From contig JAHPZA010000010.1 in NCBI GenBank assembly GCA_019058445.1, forward strand, positions 64,001 through 128,000: a DNA stretch of 64,000 nt. The letters are read 5' to 3'. Source of the DNA: Promethearchaeota archaeon. Its GTDB lineage: Archaea; Asgardarchaeota; Lokiarchaeia; Sigyniarchaeales; SOKP01. How positions within the stretch are numbered: the stretch's first letter is position 1; each line of letters opens with the position of its first letter. The position numbers and the translations under genes were made by a program. This document shows, one piece after another, positions 12,969 to 21,831 of this stretch. The notes beneath the pieces are model-generated. The model saw nothing but the letters and a program-made list of their open reading frames with translations. It was not told the origin of the DNA and searched no databases.

Positions 12969-13487
12969 TTACTTTTTCCCTCTCTCGTATTTAATTTTTT
13001 CTCTATTTACCACAAAATCCAAAAGATCATATGCTTTTAAAATCACAGTTAGAAAATAGATTCCCATGTACAGCAGTATCATTTGCTGCAAATTCACTGT
13101 GACAATACCAAAATCCACTAGATCGAATTCTATTTCAAGGGCTCCAGAAAATTTGTAGCTCCATAGATATAAACAATTTAGAATAATCTGGATTAACGCA
13201 AAGGCACCACGTCTAATAGACTGCTTAGGTGCTGAGTAGGCAAAGAATGCTGTTCCAGAGATAATAAGCCCAAAAGCCCAAACATAGAATAGAATTTGAT
13301 TTACTTGCTGTTTATAAGCTTGTAATTCAACACCCTCGACATTAATCGTTTTTATCCAACTAAAAGTCCAAAAAGGGATAAGCACAGTACTAATAAAATA
13401 TATAGCGGCGATTATGGTTCCTCTGAGAATATTTTTAATTTTCGCATTTTCTAATTGCTTTGTAACTCTATCCTTATAAAAACTCAT
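12969..13487 (-). CDS. Hypothetical membrane protein (about 4 TM)
   Basis: Four hydrophobic helices. Starts 3 nt after the upstream stop codon. Confidence 0.7.
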   Translation of the reverse strand: MSFYKDRVTKQLENAKIKNILRGTIIAAIYFISTVLIPFWTFSWIKTINVEGVELQAYKQQVNQILFYVWAFGLIISGTAFFAYSAPKQSIRRGAFALIQIILNCLYLWSYKFSGALEIEFDLVDFGIVTVNLQQMILLYMGIYFLTVILKAYDLLDFVVNREKIKYERGKK

Positions 13488-13490
13488 TTT

Positions 13491-14054
13491 TTACACCTTC
13501 TCCTCAAATCCTCCTAAATCCATATCCTCTATATCTGCTTCAAATGAAATTAGTCCCAAGGAATATTTTGCCGAAATTTTTAATTCTTCTGCTACAAAAT
13601 CAAATATCGGATCTCTTGTTAAATCAGCATTCAGGGCAATATCAGTAAAATTTACATAGTCTATATCTTCATAATCAATACCAATTTTAAATTTCTTTTT
13701 CTCCCCGGCAGGAATGGTTGCAAATGATTTCTCATCTTCATAGAGTTTTACTTCTGTTGTAACATTGCCACTAACAGTAACTCTATCGTACACTAGATTT
13801 AACAACATCTCTACTTCCAGATCTTCTAAATCAAAATACCCCAAGTTATTAATTTCAAATTCAATATCAATTTCAAAGCTATTTGGATCAATAAATGGGT
13901 TGCCATCATAAGATACGTCAATATCGATATTTTCTTCATTAGTTAATATGAGTGCCGCAGAATACCCCCCTAGAAATGACACTAAAGACATTGAGGAAGC
14001 TAATATAAAGAGGAAGATTCGAACAATTAATCGAAAAATTCTTTCTGGTCTCAT
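13491..14054 (-). CDS. Membrane-anchored protein with an acidic beta-rich (LEA_2/WHy-like?) domain
   Basis: N-terminal TM helix, then alternating beta pattern (IEFEINNLGYFDLEDLEVE). The fold call is tentative. Confidence 0.6.
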   Translation of the reverse strand: MRPERIFRLIVRIFLFILASSMSLVSFLGGYSAALILTNEENIDIDVSYDGNPFIDPNSFEIDIEFEINNLGYFDLEDLEVEMLLNLVYDRVTVSGNVTTEVKLYEDEKSFATIPAGEKKKFKIGIDYEDIDYVNFTDIALNADLTRDPIFDFVAEELKISAKYSLGLISFEADIEDMDLGGFEEKV

Positions 14055-14269
14055 AATTGTTCTCCTATATTCTTTTTATTATTTTCATTTCTTTTTGTTC
14101 AATTTTATAGGTAAATTGTGACTAATTAAAATTATAAAGTTCCATCTATTAAAATTTATATATTTTTCTATAGGAGAAAAATCATTATTTTACTTCTTTA
14201 CTTTAGAAATTTCAGATAAAATTGAAAGGTAAAAAAAAAAAGATGCTAATTAAAAAACCGGTCGCAACC

Positions 14270-14314
14270 GTAAATCGCTAATCTTCTAACATTTATCAAG
14301 ATTAGTTCATTTTT
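14270..14314 (-). promoter_or_regulatory. Eukaryote-type SECIS element 1 (3' UTR of 14324..14686)
   Basis: Minus strand AUGAA-CUAAUCUU-GAUAAAUGUUAG-AAGAUUAG-CGAU. It has an AUGA/GA kink-turn core, an 8-bp stem and AAA 11 nt after AUGAN. AUGA lies 13 nt after the stop codon. Confidence 0.85.
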
Positions 14315-14323
14315 TTAAAAGAA

Positions 14324-14686
14324 TTAAATATGTTCTATTTCCAATGAAAACGAGCCTCTGTATTTACCAAAAAGTTTCCATGTATGTGCATCGATTTTAA
14401 TTGTTTTTGAGTTACTTTTTAATTCATTTTTCAGGTATTTATCAATATAAATATCAAATCCACCATTATCAACTTCAATTTGATTCCATTTTTCAAAATG
14501 AGGATTATTAGCAACTTTATGTTTCTCAACTAATTGAACAACATCACTGCAAAATGTTCCGGATCAAGATCTGGTAAAGTATCTATAAATAGCAAAAACT
14601 AAATCATTTAACTTATTTTGTTTAACGATTTTATTATGCTTTTCCTGTAAAAGTGTTAAGGCTCTTTCTGATATTTCTAAATTCAT
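14324..14686 (-). CDS. Putative selenoprotein, HesB/IscA-like (CC/Se-motif-like) fold, 120 aa, Sec41 (UGA at 14564-14566)
   Basis: MNLEISERALTLLQEKHNKIVKQNKLNDLVFAIYRYFTRS-U-SGTFCSDVVQLVEKHKV...GGFDIYIDK...KTIKIDAHTWKLFGKYRGSFSLEIEHI*. GGAG RBS. Homologous on both sides of the UGA to the two neighbouring genes. SECIS downstream. Absent from the ORF track. Confidence 0.85.
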
Positions 14687-14809
14687 CAATATACTCCTAA
14701 TCTTTGCTCAAAACTTTTTATTATTTATTTCTTTATAAATGAAAAAAGCTGAGAACTAAAAATAATATGGTTTATAATTTAAAATTTTAAGAATAATTTT
14801 AGTTATAAA

Positions 14810-15154
14810 TTATTTTTTATCTTCCTTTAAAATGAGAGATACAAATTCATCTTCAAATTTCTCAGTTTTCTGTATGTCTATTAATATTTTTCCTATCTCT
14901 GGAAAATCTTTTAATATCCTTCTTTCAATATAAATAAGAACAGTATTACCATAACCATCATCAACTTCTTCATATTTTTCGTATAGATCTATCTCAATTT
15001 TCGCCTCAGTAAAATTTAATTCAAGATAATAATCTAAATATGACCCCGCACAAGCCTGTTTGCTAATTTGATATATGAGAATTACAGGTTTTACATTTCT
15101 GCCTTCTTTTCGTGCCTGAATATATTCAATTGTGTCTTTTGTTAAAGAAAACAT
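14810..15154 (-). CDS. Cys-containing paralog of the flanking selenoproteins (HesB/IscA-like fold)
   Basis: MFSLTKDTIEYI...VILIYQISKQA-C-AGSYL...VLIYIE...KILIDI. The Cys aligns with the UGA of the neighbours. No SECIS in its 3' UTR. Confidence 0.75.
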   Translation of the reverse strand: MFSLTKDTIEYIQARKEGRNVKPVILIYQISKQACAGSYLDYYLELNFTEAKIEIDLYEKYEEVDDGYGNTVLIYIERRILKDFPEIGKILIDIQKTEKFEDEFVSLILKEDKK

Positions 15155-15259
15155 TTTTAAATTCCTTTATTAAAACTTATTATGTTTATTAATTATCATT
15201 TTTACCTCATTTTACGTTCTCATTATTCTATTTTCATATATGGAACGGGTGCATAACCG

Positions 15260-15300
15260 CAAATCATTTTTCTTCTAACATTTTAAAGAAAAACTCATAT
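15260..15300 (-). promoter_or_regulatory. Eukaryote-type SECIS element 2 (3' UTR of 15302..15682)
   Basis: Minus strand AUGAG-UUUUUCUU-UAAAAUGUUAG-AAGAAAAA-UGAU. Same architecture and the same AAAUGUUAGAAGA as SECIS 1, with compensatory stem changes. Confidence 0.85.
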
Positions 15301-15301
15301 T

Positions 15302-15682
15302 TTAACCATATACATCTTTTTGTTTCTTAAGAAATAATAAACCCATTTGCTCACCATTCAATTCACCAAGTGCCACATCAATTAGTACTATAGTTTTTTG
15401 TGTTAATTCTTGGATCAAATCATTTTCAATATAAACTTCAATATTAGGGTCATCTATTATCTCATTCCATTGAATAAAATTTTCCTTTTCATCAAGAACC
15501 TTATGCTTTTCGACTAATTCGATGACATTACCACAGAAGGCCATTGTTCAACTCCCCCCAGAATAATAGAAAATCACCAGAACATATTTATTTAGCTCGT
15601 TCAATATTTCATTCTGTTCAAATGGTTTATTCTTATTGTAAATAAAATCCAATGCTTTTTTAGAGATTTGTATTTTAAACAA
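15302..15682 (-). CDS. Putative selenoprotein, HesB/IscA-like fold, 126 aa, Sec45 (UGA at 15548-15550)
   Basis: TTG start after an AGGTGG RBS: MFKIQISKKALDFIYNKNKPFEQNEILNELNKYVLVIFYYSGGS-U-TMAFCGNVIELVEKHKV... The ORF track reports only the part after the UGA (15302..15544). Confidence 0.85.
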
Positions 15683-15908
15683 AAACCACCTACTTTAATT
15701 CTTGATTAATTAATATTTATGAAATAAATAGTTAAAATTTATCAAAAAGCTTTGGATTTCTCGATCCTTAAGCATTGATTTCAAAAGCCAGAATGGTTTT
15801 TTTATGATAATTAATTAACCAAAACCAATAAGTAGAAATATCATTATTTCTACATTTTTTTTAACCATTTAACAACTAACTCTTAAATAGAAAATAAAAT
15901 GAATTAGA

Positions 15909-18776
15909 GTGGAAATAATGGAAATAAATGCACATTCATTAGAAGTTCAAGAAGTAGTTAATAAAATGAATACTTCATTGGACACAGGATTATCTGAAAA
16001 AGAGGTAAATAAAAGAATTGAGGAGTATGGTTTAAACGAATTACGAGAAACTAAAAAAATTTCAGCATGGCAAATCTTTTTAAGTCAGTTTAAGGATTTT
16101 CTGGTTTACTTATTATTATTTGCAATTGCTATATCCCTTATCGTTGGATTTTATGAACTCTCTGTTGGGGAGGAACCTTCTGAATTCTTAGATGCTTTAG
16201 TAATATTTATAATATTAATTATTAACGCGGTTTTAGGATTTTATCAAGAGTATAAAGCAGAACAGGCATTAGAAAGCTTAAAAAGGATGGCCCCCCATAA
16301 TGCTAAAGTTAAAAGGGATGGGATGGTAAAAGAAATTGAGGTAAAATATGTAGTACCTGGAGATATCTTGCAATTAGATGAGGGTGATAAATTACCTGCT
16401 GATGCAAGGTTAATCCAAGCATATTCTTTATATATTGATGAAGCGATTCTTACTGGTGAATCTCAACCTGTCGAAAAAAATCTTAAATTAGTTGAAGAAA
16501 AGACAATTCTTGCAGATCGTAAAAATATGGTGTATAGCAATACAATAATAACTCGAGGTAATGGAGTAGCAATTGCTGTAGCAACCGGAATGCAGACAGA
16601 GATTGGAAAAATTGCTGAAAAAATTCAAGCAGAAGAACCTGAACCAAGTCCATTTCAAATTGAAGTTGACCGTTTTGGAAAATCTTTAGGGAAAATTATA
16701 TTGATTGTATGTTTTTTGGTTTTCTTAATAGAATTCTTTATAATCATATTAACTGAGGGTTTAGAATTTGGAAGGGAAGAAGTAGGCCATATAGTTGCCG
16801 CTTTAACTATAGCTATAAGTCTAGCAGTTTCCGCTGTACCAGAAGGATTAATAGTGGTAATAACAGTAGTTATGAGTATAGGAATGAGAAAGATGGCAGA
16901 TAGAAATGCATTGGTGAAGACTCTTACTGCTGTTGAAACTTTAGGACGGGTAAATATAATATGCTCAGATAAAACTGGCACACTTACTAAAAATGAGATG
17001 ACTATTGTAAAACTATTTCTTGGAGGAAATGAATATAATGTAGAGGGCGTGGGTTATAATGTTGAGGGAAAAATTTTAAATGAATCCGGGAATGCTGTGT
17101 CATTGGACTTATCGTATTTAAAGAGATTTTTAGAAGTAGGAAATTTTTGTAATAATTCTAGTGTAATTATTAATGAGGATGGAGTAAGTACTGATGTTGT
17201 GGGAGACCCGACTGAGATCTGCTTTAAAATTTTAGCATTGAAAATGAGTCTTGATACTAAAGCTGAGAAACTTAATGAAATCCCCTTTAGCTCTGATAGA
17301 AAAATGATGTCTGTTGCCATAAAAATCGATAATAAAATATATTCTTTTCTTAAAGGAGCACCTGATGTTTTATTAAAAAATGCAGCAAAAGGATTTTATA
17401 ATGGAGAAGAAAAACCGATTAATGAGATTAAAGACACCTTTCTTAATAAAAATGAAGAATTTGGTAAAAATGCTTTAAGAGTCTTAGGATTGGCATATAA
17501 ACCACTACATGAAGGTTATAATGAAGAGGATATGGAAAAAGATTACGTATATCTCGGACTTGTAGGTATTATAGATCCTGCTCGAGATGAGGTTAAAAAA
17601 TCAATAGTTCAGGCAAGAATGGCAGGAATTCGAACTATTATGATCACAGGAGATCATAAAATTACCGCAATTGCGATTGCTAAAGAGATTGGTTTAACTG
17701 ATAACGATGATGCTATAACTGGTGCGGAGTTAGAGGAGATATCGGATGAAAATTTAGCAAATCGGCTTCAAAATATAGATGTATTTGCAAGAGTCACATC
17801 GGAACATAAATTACGTATCCTTAAAATCTTAAAGACTCAAGGAAATGTTGTTTCGATGACCGGTGATGGAGTAAACGATGCTCCTGCTGTAAAAGGGGCG
17901 AATGTTGGAGTTGCTATGGGCTTAAAAGGAACTGAAGTCACGCAAGAAGCTTCGGATATGATCCTTATTGATGATAATTATGCCACTATTGTAAATGCGA
18001 TCGAAGAAGGAAGGGGTATTTTTGAAACTACTAAATGTTTCTTTAGATATATGCTAAGCGCAAATTTTGATGAAATAATCCTAATCTTAACAGCCTGGAT
18101 TCTTATGAAGCTTTTCGTTAATGTTTATCTCGCTATACCCCTTGAACCTATACAAATATTATGGTTAAATATTGCCACTGATGGTATTCCGGCGATGGTC
18201 TTAGGTTTAACTCCTACTGATCCTGATGTGATGAATTTTAAACCGCGTAAAGGTTTTAATATGATTGCTGATATCAAGAAAGCCATAATATTTGTGGCCA
18301 TTTTTGCAGCAATCACTGATGTGGCATTATATGTAGTTTGTTGGTCAATTTTAATTCCTGCTTGGAGTGATCCAAATTCACCTTGGTATGATCCCCGTTT
18401 AGTCAATGGAACTACGATTTGGGGCGTGAAATATTCAGCAGAGGAGTATCAAATTGGTGTAGTACAAACTATTGTTTTTACTAATGTAGTCTTTTTCGAA
18501 TTATTCTTTGTATTCTCATGTACTTCTGAATATAAACCAATGTGGGAATTTCCAAACAAACATTTATTCTGGGCGACAGCAGTATCATTTGGATTACACT
18601 TGGCAATTTTATTTACACCACTTTGCATCGCATTCCATGCAGTACCGATGGATCGATGGTTTTACTGGCTAGCAATTTTTTTGGGTTCAATTTTTATTAT
18701 ACCTGCTGAAGAAACAAGAAAATACTTAAAAAGAAGAAATTTTCAAAAAAGTCCACAAAATTTTGAAATCTCATAA
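15909..18776 (+). CDS. P-type ATPase, P2A (SERCA-like Ca2+-transporting)
   Basis: TGES, PEGL, DKTGT phosphorylation site, KGAP, TGDGVNDAPA. TM motifs SANFDE, NIATDG and FFEL. Confidence 0.93.
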   Translation: MEIMEINAHSLEVQEVVNKMNTSLDTGLSEKEVNKRIEEYGLNELRETKKISAWQIFLSQFKDFLVYLLLFAIAISLIVGFYELSVGEEPSEFLDALVIFIILIINAVLGFYQEYKAEQALESLKRMAPHNAKVKRDGMVKEIEVKYVVPGDILQLDEGDKLPADARLIQAYSLYIDEAILTGESQPVEKNLKLVEEKTILADRKNMVYSNTIITRGNGVAIAVATGMQTEIGKIAEKIQAEEPEPSPFQIEVDRFGKSLGKIILIVCFLVFLIEFFIIILTEGLEFGREEVGHIVAALTIAISLAVSAVPEGLIVVITVVMSIGMRKMADRNALVKTLTAVETLGRVNIICSDKTGTLTKNEMTIVKLFLGGNEYNVEGVGYNVEGKILNESGNAVSLDLSYLKRFLEVGNFCNNSSVIINEDGVSTDVVGDPTEICFKILALKMSLDTKAEKLNEIPFSSDRKMMSVAIKIDNKIYSFLKGAPDVLLKNAAKGFYNGEEKPINEIKDTFLNKNEEFGKNALRVLGLAYKPLHEGYNEEDMEKDYVYLGLVGIIDPARDEVKKSIVQARMAGIRTIMITGDHKITAIAIAKEIGLTDNDDAITGAELEEISDENLANRLQNIDVFARVTSEHKLRILKILKTQGNVVSMTGDGVNDAPAVKGANVGVAMGLKGTEVTQEASDMILIDDNYATIVNAIEEGRGIFETTKCFFRYMLSANFDEIILILTAWILMKLFVNVYLAIPLEPIQILWLNIATDGIPAMVLGLTPTDPDVMNFKPRKGFNMIADIKKAIIFVAIFAAITDVALYVVCWSILIPAWSDPNSPWYDPRLVNGTTIWGVKYSAEEYQIGVVQTIVFTNVVFFELFFVFSCTSEYKPMWEFPNKHLFWATAVSFGLHLAILFTPLCIAFHAVPMDRWFYWLAIFLGSIFIIPAEETRKYLKRRNFQKSPQNFEIS

Positions 18777-18975: not shown

Positions 18976-21831
18976 ATGACGATTAAAGAAGTATATCCTC
19001 ATGCAATGAGTATTGATGAAGTTACAAAATCACTGGACACGTCACTCAGCACGGGAATATCGGAACAAGAAGCTAATAAACGATTAGATGAATATGGTTT
19101 AAATGAATTAATCCAAAGAAAAAAAATCTCTCCATTTACTATTTTTATTGGACAATTTAAAGATTTTCTCGTTTATTTACTATTTTTTGCAATAAGTATT
19201 TCGATAATAGTAGGCTTTTATGAGCTTTCCAGGGGTGAAAATCCCTCAGAATTCTTAGATGCCTTAGTTATTTTCATTATTTTAATTTTGAATGCAATTT
19301 TGGGATTTTATCAAGAATATAAGGCGGAAAAATCATTAGAAAGTTTGAAAAGGTTAGCACCTCATTACGCTAAGGTTAAAAGAGATGGTAAAATTAGACA
19401 AATCAGTGTTAAAGATGTAGTGCCTGGAGATGTTATTCAATTAGACGAGGGTGAAAAATTACCTGCTGACGCCCGGTTAACAAAAGCTTTCTCGTTATAT
19501 GTCGATGAAGCTATTCTTACTGGAGAGTCAAAACCAGTTCATAAAAATTTGGATTTATTGGACACAAAAACGATGTTAGCAGATAGAAAGAATTGTATTT
19601 ACAGCAATACAATAATAACAAGGGGTAATGGAGAGGCAATTGTAATCGCTACAGGGATGCAAACTGAAATTGGAAAAATTGCAGAAAAAATTCAAGAAGA
19701 GGAGCCAGAACCAAGTCCTTTCCAGCAAGAAGTTGATCGATTCGGGAAAATGCTTGGAAAAATGATTATGATTGTATGTTTTCTAGTATTTGCTATAGAA
19801 TTGGTAATTATCATAGCTTTTTCTGGAATTGGATTTCAGCAGGAAGAAACAGAAGAGATTATAAATGCATTAACAATTGCAATAAGCCTTGCAGTTTCTG
19901 CCGTACCAGAAGGATTGGTTGTAGTTATTACGGTTGTAATGAGTTTAGGAATGAGACGAATGGCTGATAAAAATGCCTTGGTAAAAACACTTACTGCTGT
20001 TGAGACTTTAGGACGTGTAAACGTCATATGCTCAGATAAAACAGGAACCTTAACTAAAAATGAAATGACAGTTGTAAGGACTTTTATAAATGATAAAGTC
20101 TATAAAGTAGATGGAGTGGGATATAATATAATCGGGACAATCCTTGATGAAAACAATAATGTCATTCAAGAAAATCTTAATCTACTACGTTTTTTAGAAG
20201 TTTGTATGTTCTGTAATAATTCAAGTGTAAATATCATTAATGATGAGGGAGATACGGAAGTTGTGGGTGATCCCACAGAAATTTCACTAAAAGTTTTAGC
20301 AATGAAAATGAATTTACCAACGAAAATAGAAAAAATCGATGAAATACCATTTAATTCAGATAGAAAAATGATGACTGTAATCGCAAGAATTAATGGAGAA
20401 TTATTTGCACTTATAAAAGGAGCACCAGATGTCTTGTTGAAAAAAGCAAGCAAGGTTTTACACCAAGATCAGGATGTACCAATAGAGAAAGCTGAAAAAA
20501 TTATTTTGGAGCAAAATGAATATTTTGCAAAAGAAGCCTTACGAGTGTTGGGAATAGCCTATAAACCTCTAATTGAAGGATATAATGAGGAAAAGGTTGA
20601 AGAAGATTTTATATTCTTAGGTTTAGTAGGAATCATCGATCCCGCTAGGGATGAAGTGAAAAGTTCTATTGAGGAAGCTAGGAATGCGGGTATCAGAACA
20701 ATAATGATAACTGGTGATCACAAAAGTACTGCGATTGCCATAGCAAAACAAATTGGATTAACAGATAATGAAAATGCGATTACTGGAGCAGAATTGGAAG
20801 AAATGTCTGATAATGAATTAGCACAAAGAGTAAAAACTACTGATGTTTTTGCGAGGGTAACTTCAGAACATAAACTTCGCATTCTAAACTCGTTAAAAGC
20901 TGAACAAGACATTGTTTCCATGACCGGAGATGGAGTAAATGATGCACCTGCAGTAAAAGGTGCTAATGTCGGAGTCGCGATGGGGCTAAAAGGAACTGAA
21001 GTTACCCAAGAGGCAGCAGATATGATCCTTATCGATGATAATTACACAACGATCGTTAATGCTATTGAAGAAGGACGTGGTATTTTCGCAACTACAAAGA
21101 GTTTTTTTAGGTATATGTTAAGCTGTAATTTTGATGAAATTTTCATGATTTTAACTGCTTGGATTTTAATGAAAATCTTTATTAATGTTTATTTAGCTCA
21201 ACCACTTGAAGCTATACAAATATTATGGCTAAATGTTGCAACTGATGGAATTCCAGCAATGGTACTTGGATTAACTCCAACAGAACCCGACGTTATGGGA
21301 TATAAACCTCGTAAAGGCTTTAATATGATCTCAGACATCAAAAAAGCAATCATATTTGCAGCAGTTTTTGCGGCAATAACTGATGTAGGATTATATGTAA
21401 TAGTATGGTGGCTAATTAGGGGCCCTACTGGAGATGGAGGAATTTGGATGAATTTAGATCCTCGATTAGTTAATGGAACAACTATTTGGGGGATTCACTA
21501 TTCAGCAGAAGAATATCAAATTGCTGTAGCACAATCAATTGTATTTACCAATGTAGTGTTTTTTGAATTATTTTTTGTATTTTCATGTACCTCTGAAACC
21601 AGACCTGTTTGGGAATTTCGAAATAAACATCTATTTTGGGCAACCGGACTTTCATTCACTTTACATTTAGTAATTCTATTTACGCCATTAGCAATTGCAT
21701 TTCATACAGTTCCAATGGATCGATGGTATCATTGGTTAGCTATCTTTTTAGGCTCTGTGTTTATCATTCCGGCTGAAGAAATGAGAAAATATTTAATTAG
21801 ACGAAAAAAGGCTACAGAAATAATATATTAA
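18976..21831 (+). CDS. P-type ATPase, P2A (SERCA-like Ca2+-transporting), tandem paralog
   Basis: Same motifs (TGES, PEGL, DKTGT, GDGVND, SCNFDE, NVATDG). Colinear with 15909..18776. Confidence 0.93.
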   Translation: MTIKEVYPHAMSIDEVTKSLDTSLSTGISEQEANKRLDEYGLNELIQRKKISPFTIFIGQFKDFLVYLLFFAISISIIVGFYELSRGENPSEFLDALVIFIILILNAILGFYQEYKAEKSLESLKRLAPHYAKVKRDGKIRQISVKDVVPGDVIQLDEGEKLPADARLTKAFSLYVDEAILTGESKPVHKNLDLLDTKTMLADRKNCIYSNTIITRGNGEAIVIATGMQTEIGKIAEKIQEEEPEPSPFQQEVDRFGKMLGKMIMIVCFLVFAIELVIIIAFSGIGFQQEETEEIINALTIAISLAVSAVPEGLVVVITVVMSLGMRRMADKNALVKTLTAVETLGRVNVICSDKTGTLTKNEMTVVRTFINDKVYKVDGVGYNIIGTILDENNNVIQENLNLLRFLEVCMFCNNSSVNIINDEGDTEVVGDPTEISLKVLAMKMNLPTKIEKIDEIPFNSDRKMMTVIARINGELFALIKGAPDVLLKKASKVLHQDQDVPIEKAEKIILEQNEYFAKEALRVLGIAYKPLIEGYNEEKVEEDFIFLGLVGIIDPARDEVKSSIEEARNAGIRTIMITGDHKSTAIAIAKQIGLTDNENAITGAELEEMSDNELAQRVKTTDVFARVTSEHKLRILNSLKAEQDIVSMTGDGVNDAPAVKGANVGVAMGLKGTEVTQEAADMILIDDNYTTIVNAIEEGRGIFATTKSFFRYMLSCNFDEIFMILTAWILMKIFINVYLAQPLEAIQILWLNVATDGIPAMVLGLTPTEPDVMGYKPRKGFNMISDIKKAIIFAAVFAAITDVGLYVIVWWLIRGPTGDGGIWMNLDPRLVNGTTIWGIHYSAEEYQIAVAQSIVFTNVVFFELFFVFSCTSETRPVWEFRNKHLFWATGLSFTLHLVILFTPLAIAFHTVPMDRWYHWLAIFLGSVFIIPAEEMRKYLIRRKKATEIIY

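Follow-up and report, generated by a model that had tools for sequence, protein, structure and literature searches.

Two neighboring genes in the 64,000-nucleotide (nt) stretch of archaeal DNA analyzed here (the window; Promethearchaeota archaeon, assembly GCA_019058445.1, contig JAHPZA010000010.1, positions 64,001 to 128,000) almost certainly encode selenoproteins of an Asgard family. We put the probability that these genes, which we call A and C, are real selenoprotein genes, with UGA translated as selenocysteine (Sec, U) by means of a selenocysteine insertion sequence (SECIS) 3' of the coding region, at about 0.9. This reading is based on selection acting on the encoded proteins, an invariant column at the TGA, covarying SECIS elements past the stop and a complete archaeal/eukaryal Sec pathway in the genome. 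For evidence drawn from sequence, the case for Sec decoding by way of a 3' lokiSECIS is about as strong as it can be. In the proposed mechanism, EFSec and Sec-tRNA would decode the UGA codons of A and C as Sec, directed by the 3' SECIS.

When TGA is read as U, the minus strand of the window contains three adjacent open reading frames (ORFs) of 121, 114 and 126 amino acids. Gene C (15302-15682, minus strand) encodes a 126-residue protein with the motif S-U-TMAFCGNV and a C-terminus of ...KKxxDVYG; it starts at a TTG aligned with ATG or TTG in its orthologs and stops at a TAA (15302-15304), and its Sec codon, residue 45, is at 15548-15550. Gene B (14810-15154, minus strand), which is intact under translation table 11, encodes a 114-residue paralog with cysteine (Cys) at the corresponding site (KQA-C-AGSYLDYY). 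Gene A (14324-14686, minus strand; stop TAA at 14324-14326) has the motif RS-U-SGTFC.DVVQL, and its Sec codon is at 14564-14566. Its most likely start, judged from the alignment, is the ATG at 14684-14686 as in its orthologs, giving 120 residues; an alternative TTG at 14689 would give the 121-residue ORF (14324-14689).

The preliminary description of this locus had proposed that three neighboring minus-strand genes share one scaffold, with an in-frame TGA in two and Cys in the middle one. Both TGAs, the Cys and the flanking peptides quoted for them are exactly as described, the three proteins are alignable over their full length, and the TGA/Cys column is invariant among them. Homology also continues beyond the TGA, with FC..V..LVEKHKV common to the products of genes A and C. 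Standard gene calling breaks both TGA genes, and table 11 yields fragments only: a 41-residue ORF that stops at the TGA of gene A, a 44-residue ORF that stops at the TGA of gene C, and an 80-residue ORF that opens two codons further on.

To follow the TGA in other genomes, we searched with a profile of the three window proteins, in 24 genomes of the same taxonomic family and then in 400 genomes of the phylum. The protein family was present in 14 of the 24, and exactly one in-frame TGA was found in 22 of 25 full-length homologs, the window's three counted. Across the phylum it occurred in 76 of the 400 genomes (53/134 in the window's own taxonomic family, 11/14 in a sister family and a few in six others), with a single TGA in about 92 of the 101 matches. 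The Sec/Cys column is the sole invariant column of the 25-sequence alignment. TGA occupied it in all type C (14/14) and all type A (8/8) orthologs compared, and the ratio of nonsynonymous to synonymous substitution (dN/dS) within genera, by the Nei-Gojobori method, was 0.08-0.28 upstream and 0.17-0.26 downstream of the TGA. The predictions that TGA would align with Cys and that dN/dS would be below 1 on either side of it were thus both borne out: the TGA holds its column across dozens of independent assemblies, and in Cys-type homologs that column is filled by Cys. A sequencing error behind the TGA is untenable, as the codon is kept in more than 70 independent assemblies.

The family falls into several types. 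Type C has S-U-TMAFCGNV.ELVEK and ends in ...NVYG, and type A has RS-U-SG.FC.DVVQL; the two lie side by side in many genomes and apart in others. All but one of 42 Sec forms have a second Cys five residues after Sec (U-x4-C), which type B lacks. Type B, the Cys form (C-AGSYLDYY), occurred only in the window's genus among the genomes searched, always between C and A, and more distant Cys relatives are present in metagenomes. A fourth, shorter and divergent type with G-U-C-G or G-C-C-G occurs in other taxonomic families; its U-C-G form is encoded by three closed genomes, each a single contig, from the window's order.

Public databases contain the family mainly in pieces. A profile search of 1.84 billion protein representatives returned 78 proteins only, mostly fragments of about 40 or 65-87 residues broken exactly at the TGA. 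The remainder are Cys forms or full-length calls with tryptophan (W) at the Sec site (P0004-P0010 and others); the W apparently comes from gene calling with a TGA=Trp code (code 4) on short Asgard contigs. In NCBI records, pieces of 80 and about 40 residues are annotated as hypothetical proteins.

Directly 3' of genes A and C, and not after the Cys gene B, lies the AUGA-stem-loop-GA hairpin that had been noted there before. In Lokiarchaeota, the published SECIS definition (Mariotti et al. 2016, PMC4989117) comprises AUGA, a 9-base-pair (bp) stem, an 11-nt loop with an A-rich start and a final AG, and GA, near the stop. The element of gene C (15264-15298, minus strand) starts 3 nt past the stop and consists of AUGA, a 9-bp stem, the 11-nt loop UAAAAUGUUAG and GA. 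That of gene A (14275-14310, minus strand) starts 13 nt past the stop and has AUGA, a nine-position stem of eight pairs plus one A-C mismatch adjoining the core, and GA; its apical loop, GAUAAAUGUUAG, is 12 nt long, which corrects an earlier count of 11. Both loops finish in AG. A strict form of the pattern matched 20 times on both strands of the 4.6-Mb genome (9.2 Mb scanned), so that chance alone would give about 3e-4 strict matches over the 120 nt that follow the two stops. The hairpins after A and C are thus not due to chance. The 20 matches include the two directly 3' of A and C as well as one that is 58 nt downstream of a two-Sec Prx-like gene.

We then compared the hairpin across orthologs. 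The strict pattern was present in 28 of the 40 Sec orthologs with enough downstream sequence, and after none of three Cys genes. On visual inspection, the remaining 12 share this hairpin and its loop motif but depart from the pattern in one respect each: a bulge of 1 nt, a core that reads ACGA or AUGU, or a core whose UGA is the stop. In one other genome (L026), the frame of both family genes is extended so that the UGA within the SECIS AUGA core is the stop codon, and the SECIS begins inside the coding sequence. Among 17 aligned elements from orthologs, the core is AUGA in 16 and GUGA in one, and GA is invariant. Stem positions are paired in 95.4% of cells, compared with 47-58% when the partners are slid, compensatory changes occur in seven of the nine stem pairs, and none of 500 shuffles reached the observed covariation. 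These results support the reality of the hairpins as SECIS elements. Minimum-free-energy folding of single untranslated-region sequences was not significant against shuffles; the evidence for the SECIS comes from the comparative data.

The elements resemble the lokiSECIS, a type I, eukaryote-like SECIS of Asgard archaea described by Mariotti et al. and Huang et al. 2024 (PMC11227280), in their AUGA, 9-bp stem, A-rich loop running to AG, GA, and position just 3' of the stop, and an element built in the same way follows the Prx-like selenoprotein gene of this genome. They differ in that the A/C family is not among the families listed with such elements; in the 12-nt loop and core-adjoining A-C mismatch of gene A and the bulged, variant-core and stop-overlapping forms of some orthologs; and in a conserved small GC hairpin directly after the element. 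After gene C this hairpin (GCGG...CCGU; 15245-15260, minus strand) begins 3 nt past the GA, and after gene A (CGGU...ACCG; 14259-14270, minus strand) it is followed by U runs, as is often the case in this family. Its CGG/CCG core is kept in 15 of 17 orthologs, with 82% of cells paired and thin covariation. All lokiSECIS that we noted in the genome are trailed, about 3 nt past the GA, by a short GC hairpin, including those at C3:331308, C3:332034, C6:634054 and C3:242273 (contig and position). The trailing hairpin may either belong to the SECIS itself or act as a terminator.

These comparisons bear on whether the TGAs are simply true stops, in split genes, pseudogenes or pairs of tiny ORFs, or are read through without Sec. 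Such an explanation would account for the fragments produced by standard calling and for the 80- and roughly 40-residue pieces in public databases. However, the TGA stands at one column in about 90 homologs from many genera with purifying selection on both halves, covarying SECIS elements follow only the TGA-containing genes, and the Cys forms have Cys at the column. We consider it very improbable.

The genome encodes the machinery that decoding of these UGA codons as Sec would need. The window belongs to contig C10 of a 4.6-Mb genome (G000) of 31% G+C and 92.6% completeness. With introns allowed, ARAGORN identified a tRNA-Sec (G000:C1:27020-27126, plus strand) with a 17-nt intron, a 6-bp anticodon stem and a long variable arm, at a locus that is also recognized by the general tRNA model. 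ARAGORN puts the intron next to the anticodon; in the Lokiarchaeota tRNA-Sec already published, an intron of 31 nt interrupts the T loop (PMC4989117). SepSecS scored 477 bits, EFSec, about 7 kb from it, 242 bits, and a SelD gene with one in-frame TGA is present. A PSTK-like kinase was also found, so that each of the Sec components proposed for checking (tRNA-Sec, PSTK, SepSecS, EFSec and SelD) is represented in this genome. SepSecS is also widespread in the taxonomic family, with 130 of 135 genomes positive. On contig C3, a Prx-like gene with two Sec codons (G-G-W-U-V-Y-U) lies upstream of the SECIS at C3:331308, and two strict lokiSECIS lie about 700 nt apart (G000:C3 about 331300-332100, minus strand); Prx-like proteins are a known Asgard selenoprotein family (PMC11227280).

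Some results count against Sec decoding. The Rfam tRNA-Sec model had no match in the whole genome, and the PSTK-like kinase, though full length, scored 149 bits, under the curated cut-off. An Rfam scan of positions 13000-17000 with E values up to 10 returned no SECIS family and two chance matches only, which is expected given that existing SECIS models miss lokiSECIS (PMC4989117).

Reassignment of TGA in this organism, for instance to Trp, would explain the W at the Sec column in several database representatives. By contrast, TGA terminates 250 of the 1984 long ORFs in the genome and is thus an ordinary stop there, some orthologs of this very family stop at TGA, Sec machinery and SECIS elements are present, and the W is best explained by code-4 calling on short contigs. 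The chance that reassignment is responsible is close to nil.

An AlphaFold2 model of the gene C protein, made with the family alignment, had a mean local confidence (pLDDT) of 90.2 and a predicted template-modeling score (pTM) of 0.81, and places Sec45 in a turn between two long strands. The best 12 Foldseek matches in the Protein Data Bank (PDB) were all of IscA/SufA/HesB type (1r94_A, E 4.6e-4), and VIA-align to Escherichia coli IscA aligned 97 of 97 IscA residues (Z 8.1, root-mean-square deviation 4.1 Å). Furthermore, hhalign against an alignment of canonical Asgard IscA put the Sec column on the Cys of the IscA GGC (E 0.0013). In agreement with the HesB/IscA-like fold suggested earlier, for which the Foldseek matches and the VIA score concur, the model gives good support to an IscA/SufA/HesB-like fold with Sec at the position of the first ligand Cys of A-type carriers. 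At the level of sequence the case is less favorable: the hhalign probability for IscA was 18.5%, indicating weak homology, and a profile search of PDB sequences gave no matches. The C-terminal CxC of IscA is in none of the 25 aligned members. No signal peptide or membrane segment is visible in the sequences or the model of these proteins of about 120 residues. Homodimer prediction for the unaltered Cys paralog B returned a score of 0.01, which speaks neither for nor against a dimer.

Sec and the Cys five residues on would form the active centre of the A and C proteins, and two chemistries come into question. Most likely, though at slightly under even odds, the pair would bind iron, an Fe-S cluster or some other soft metal through selenolate and thiolate, at a site that a dimer partner may complete. 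The other possibility, with some plausibility, is that the Sec/Cys pair is a redox-active selenenylsulfide, the proteins being small oxidoreductases or redox sensors that possibly act on an adjoining ATPase rather than binding metal or Fe-S. Divergent relatives have adjacent U-C or C-C residues, which are like vicinal redox pairs, the C-terminal ligand cysteines of IscA are lost, and the ATPase looks to be of a Ca2+/Mn2+ type, ions that Sec and Cys would not bind. Selenoproteins with a nearby Cys are also mostly redox enzymes (PMC13188914). On the other hand, the fold and the position of Sec match an Fe/Fe-S ligand site, the U-x4-C spacing is no known redox motif, and there is no thioredoxin-like feature.

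Gene B lacks the second Cys at +5. The preliminary description had suggested that the Cys copy could be a selenium-independent backup, and this is weakened by the absence from gene B of a residue kept in 41/42 Sec forms. We therefore reject gene B as a simple selenium-free backup, as the +5 Cys is missing, and suggest that it is a Cys-type relative nearer classical HesB rather than a like-for-like substitute.

The ATPase just mentioned is a P2A-type (PMR1/SERCA-like) cation ATPase of 955 residues (15909-18776, plus strand; Pfam and NCBIfam), arranged head-to-head with gene C across a divergent spacer of 226 bp. Its best models are PMR1-type and SERCA-type Ca2+ pumps, at 607 and 592 bits, both under the equivalog cut-offs. 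In 29 of 33 genomes, spread over 10 genera, a homolog of the ATPase adjoins the selenoprotein family, the orientation is divergent in 46 of 47 loci, and 86-340 nt separate the starts. This conserved pairing points to shared regulation of type C and the ATPase, or to a role of type C connected with cation pumping. Against such a link, all of the ATPase-linked genomes belong to one taxonomic family, so that shared ancestry adds to the synteny. Sec and Cys are moreover poor ligands for Ca2+ or Mn2+; the selenoproteins are accordingly unlikely to chaperone the substrate of the pump itself, the ATPase being P2A-type and not heavy-metal P1B.

Broader roles are more speculative. It is a long shot that the family is a prokaryotic counterpart of the animal selenoprotein control of SERCA, or a selenium-based stand-in for an A-type Fe-S carrier that we did not find: canonical IscA/HesB (PF01521) was not detected in the 26 related genomes searched from the window's family and order. 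In a phylum sample of 251, PF01521 is concentrated in one other family, with 10/10 genomes positive. As for the remaining neighbors, a second long tandem ORF follows the ATPase (18976-21831, plus strand, 951 residues), and two genes downstream of gene A (12969-14054, minus strand; 187 and 172 residues, no family) are kept as neighbors in five genera only.

The same simple SECIS scan that matched after genes A and C brought up a further candidate. A 156-residue ORF with two adjacent in-frame TGAs (G-C-U-U) lies at G000:C6:633575-634042 on the plus strand (L095:1076-1543) and has no Pfam family. A strict lokiSECIS is found 8 nt past its stop (C6:634054-634088), and homologs occur in 31 of 41 relatives (20/23 genera), nearly all with two to three in-frame TGAs. 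On these sequence features it is a candidate for a second unlisted Asgard selenoprotein family, and its recovery by so simple a scan implies that Asgard selenoproteomes are probably under-counted. The A/C family itself is a widespread addition to the short list of Asgard selenoprotein families. With it come over 28 additional covarying lokiSECIS, among them bulged forms, core variants and cases in which the AUGA core is also the stop; these can inform models of the SECIS transition from archaea to eukaryotes. The tight head-to-head link of the family with a P2A ATPase is a concrete lead on the function of HesB-like and CC/Se selenoproteins.

We next compared the family with selenoproteins already described. 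Seven Asgard families are listed by Huang et al. 2024 (PMC11227280): SelD, FrhA/VhuU, HdrA, FrhD/VhuD, Prx-like, AhpF-N and DsbA-like. Sun et al. 2021 gave HdrA, Prx and MvhD, and a 2026 review (PMC13188914) repeats the same Asgard families; the A/C family in Asgard archaea is mentioned in none of the three. The published surveys of 2016, 2021 and 2024 relied on homology to known families, which is why the A/C family escaped them.

Curated models come near the family without reaching genes A and C, whose proteins attained no curated threshold. Pfam Fe-S_biosyn (PF01521) gave an E value of 0.071 for gene A and 13.8 bits for P0001 (P0001 and P0003 are the two Sec proteins of the window), short of the gathering threshold of 26.3 bits, and matched 3 of 25 members, at best with E 8.4e-5. 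In NCBIfam, all matches of the 25 members were sub-threshold: CC/Se motif in six, HesB_rel_seleno in two, and SufA and IscA_HesB_Se in one each. TIGR01911 (cut-off 66.35 bits) did not match P0001 or P0003 and gave nothing below E 1.5 in the genome; the best relative reached 22 bits, and P0011, a relative of gene B, E 1.8e-4. With NF041239 (cut-off 40 bits), P0003 scored 12 bits over 17 N-terminal residues and P0001 had no match.

Genes A and C could nevertheless be divergent members of the catalogued CC/Se-motif (NF041239, PF28096 CC_Se_fam) or HesB-like (TIGR01911) selenoproteins, and so genuine selenoproteins without novelty of kind. In favor of this, sub-threshold matches to NF041239 and TIGR01911 occur in 6/25 and 2/25 members, a U-C-G type relative from another genome (L027) scores 37.5 bits against the NF041239 cut-off of 40, a type B relative (P0092) has a precomputed PF28096 match, and the protein-atlas neighbors of gene B include PF01521 and PF28096 clusters, in leads that are all below 0.9. 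However, neither window Sec protein reaches the NF041239 or TIGR01911 cut-off, and their motif is U-x4-C, without UxGP. Genes A and C have U-S-G-T and U-T-M-A instead, and U-S-G-P is found in one ortholog. Nor is there, in A, B or C, an adjacent Cys-Cys or Cys-Sec pair, which is how we read the name of the CC/Se family; such pairs are found only in the divergent U-C and C-C relatives. In addition, Asgard surveys using known families did not recover the A/C family. We regard membership in a catalogued family as unlikely. As to the earlier suggestion that the family might be undescribed, its absence from the 2024 and 2026 Asgard lists stands, and the claim is tempered by its remote kinship to NF041239/PF28096 and TIGR01911.

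Set beside the known systems, the window proteins share features with each. The CC/Se motif family, first predicted in Moorella thermoacetica, resembles them in size (about 90-125 residues) and in having one Sec/Cys at an equivalent hairpin. By sequence, no curated model is closer to 6 of the 25 members, and the U-C-G Asgard relatives come near its cut-off. The differences are that A, B and C are sub-threshold or unmatched and lack a CC/CU pair, that the second Cys of the Sec forms is at +5, and that the window genes are archaeal with a eukaryote-like 3' SECIS rather than a bacterial in-frame SECIS. The review table gives the CC/Se motif as CxxU, and both this family and the HesB-like one (TIGR01911, UxGP) are described as having no known function (PMC13188914). 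HesB-like selenoproteins of bacteria and Methanococcus maripaludis are likewise small and share the HesB/IscA fold with Sec at the conserved first Cys, but TIGR01911 does not match A and C, whose motif is U-[ST]-[GM]-x-F-C in place of UxGP, and homology-based Asgard surveys missed the window family. The IscA/SufA carriers (PF01521; 1s98, 1r94, 2d2a, 1x0g) differ in sequence, to which similarity is marginal, and in their C-terminal CxC: of the three ligand cysteines, the window proteins have the first, as Sec, and not the CxC. In fold they agree with Z scores of 7.1-8.1 over nearly the whole target, with Sec/Cys at the ligand position. We conclude that the A/C family represents a new branch, specific to Asgard archaea, within a known kind of selenoprotein.

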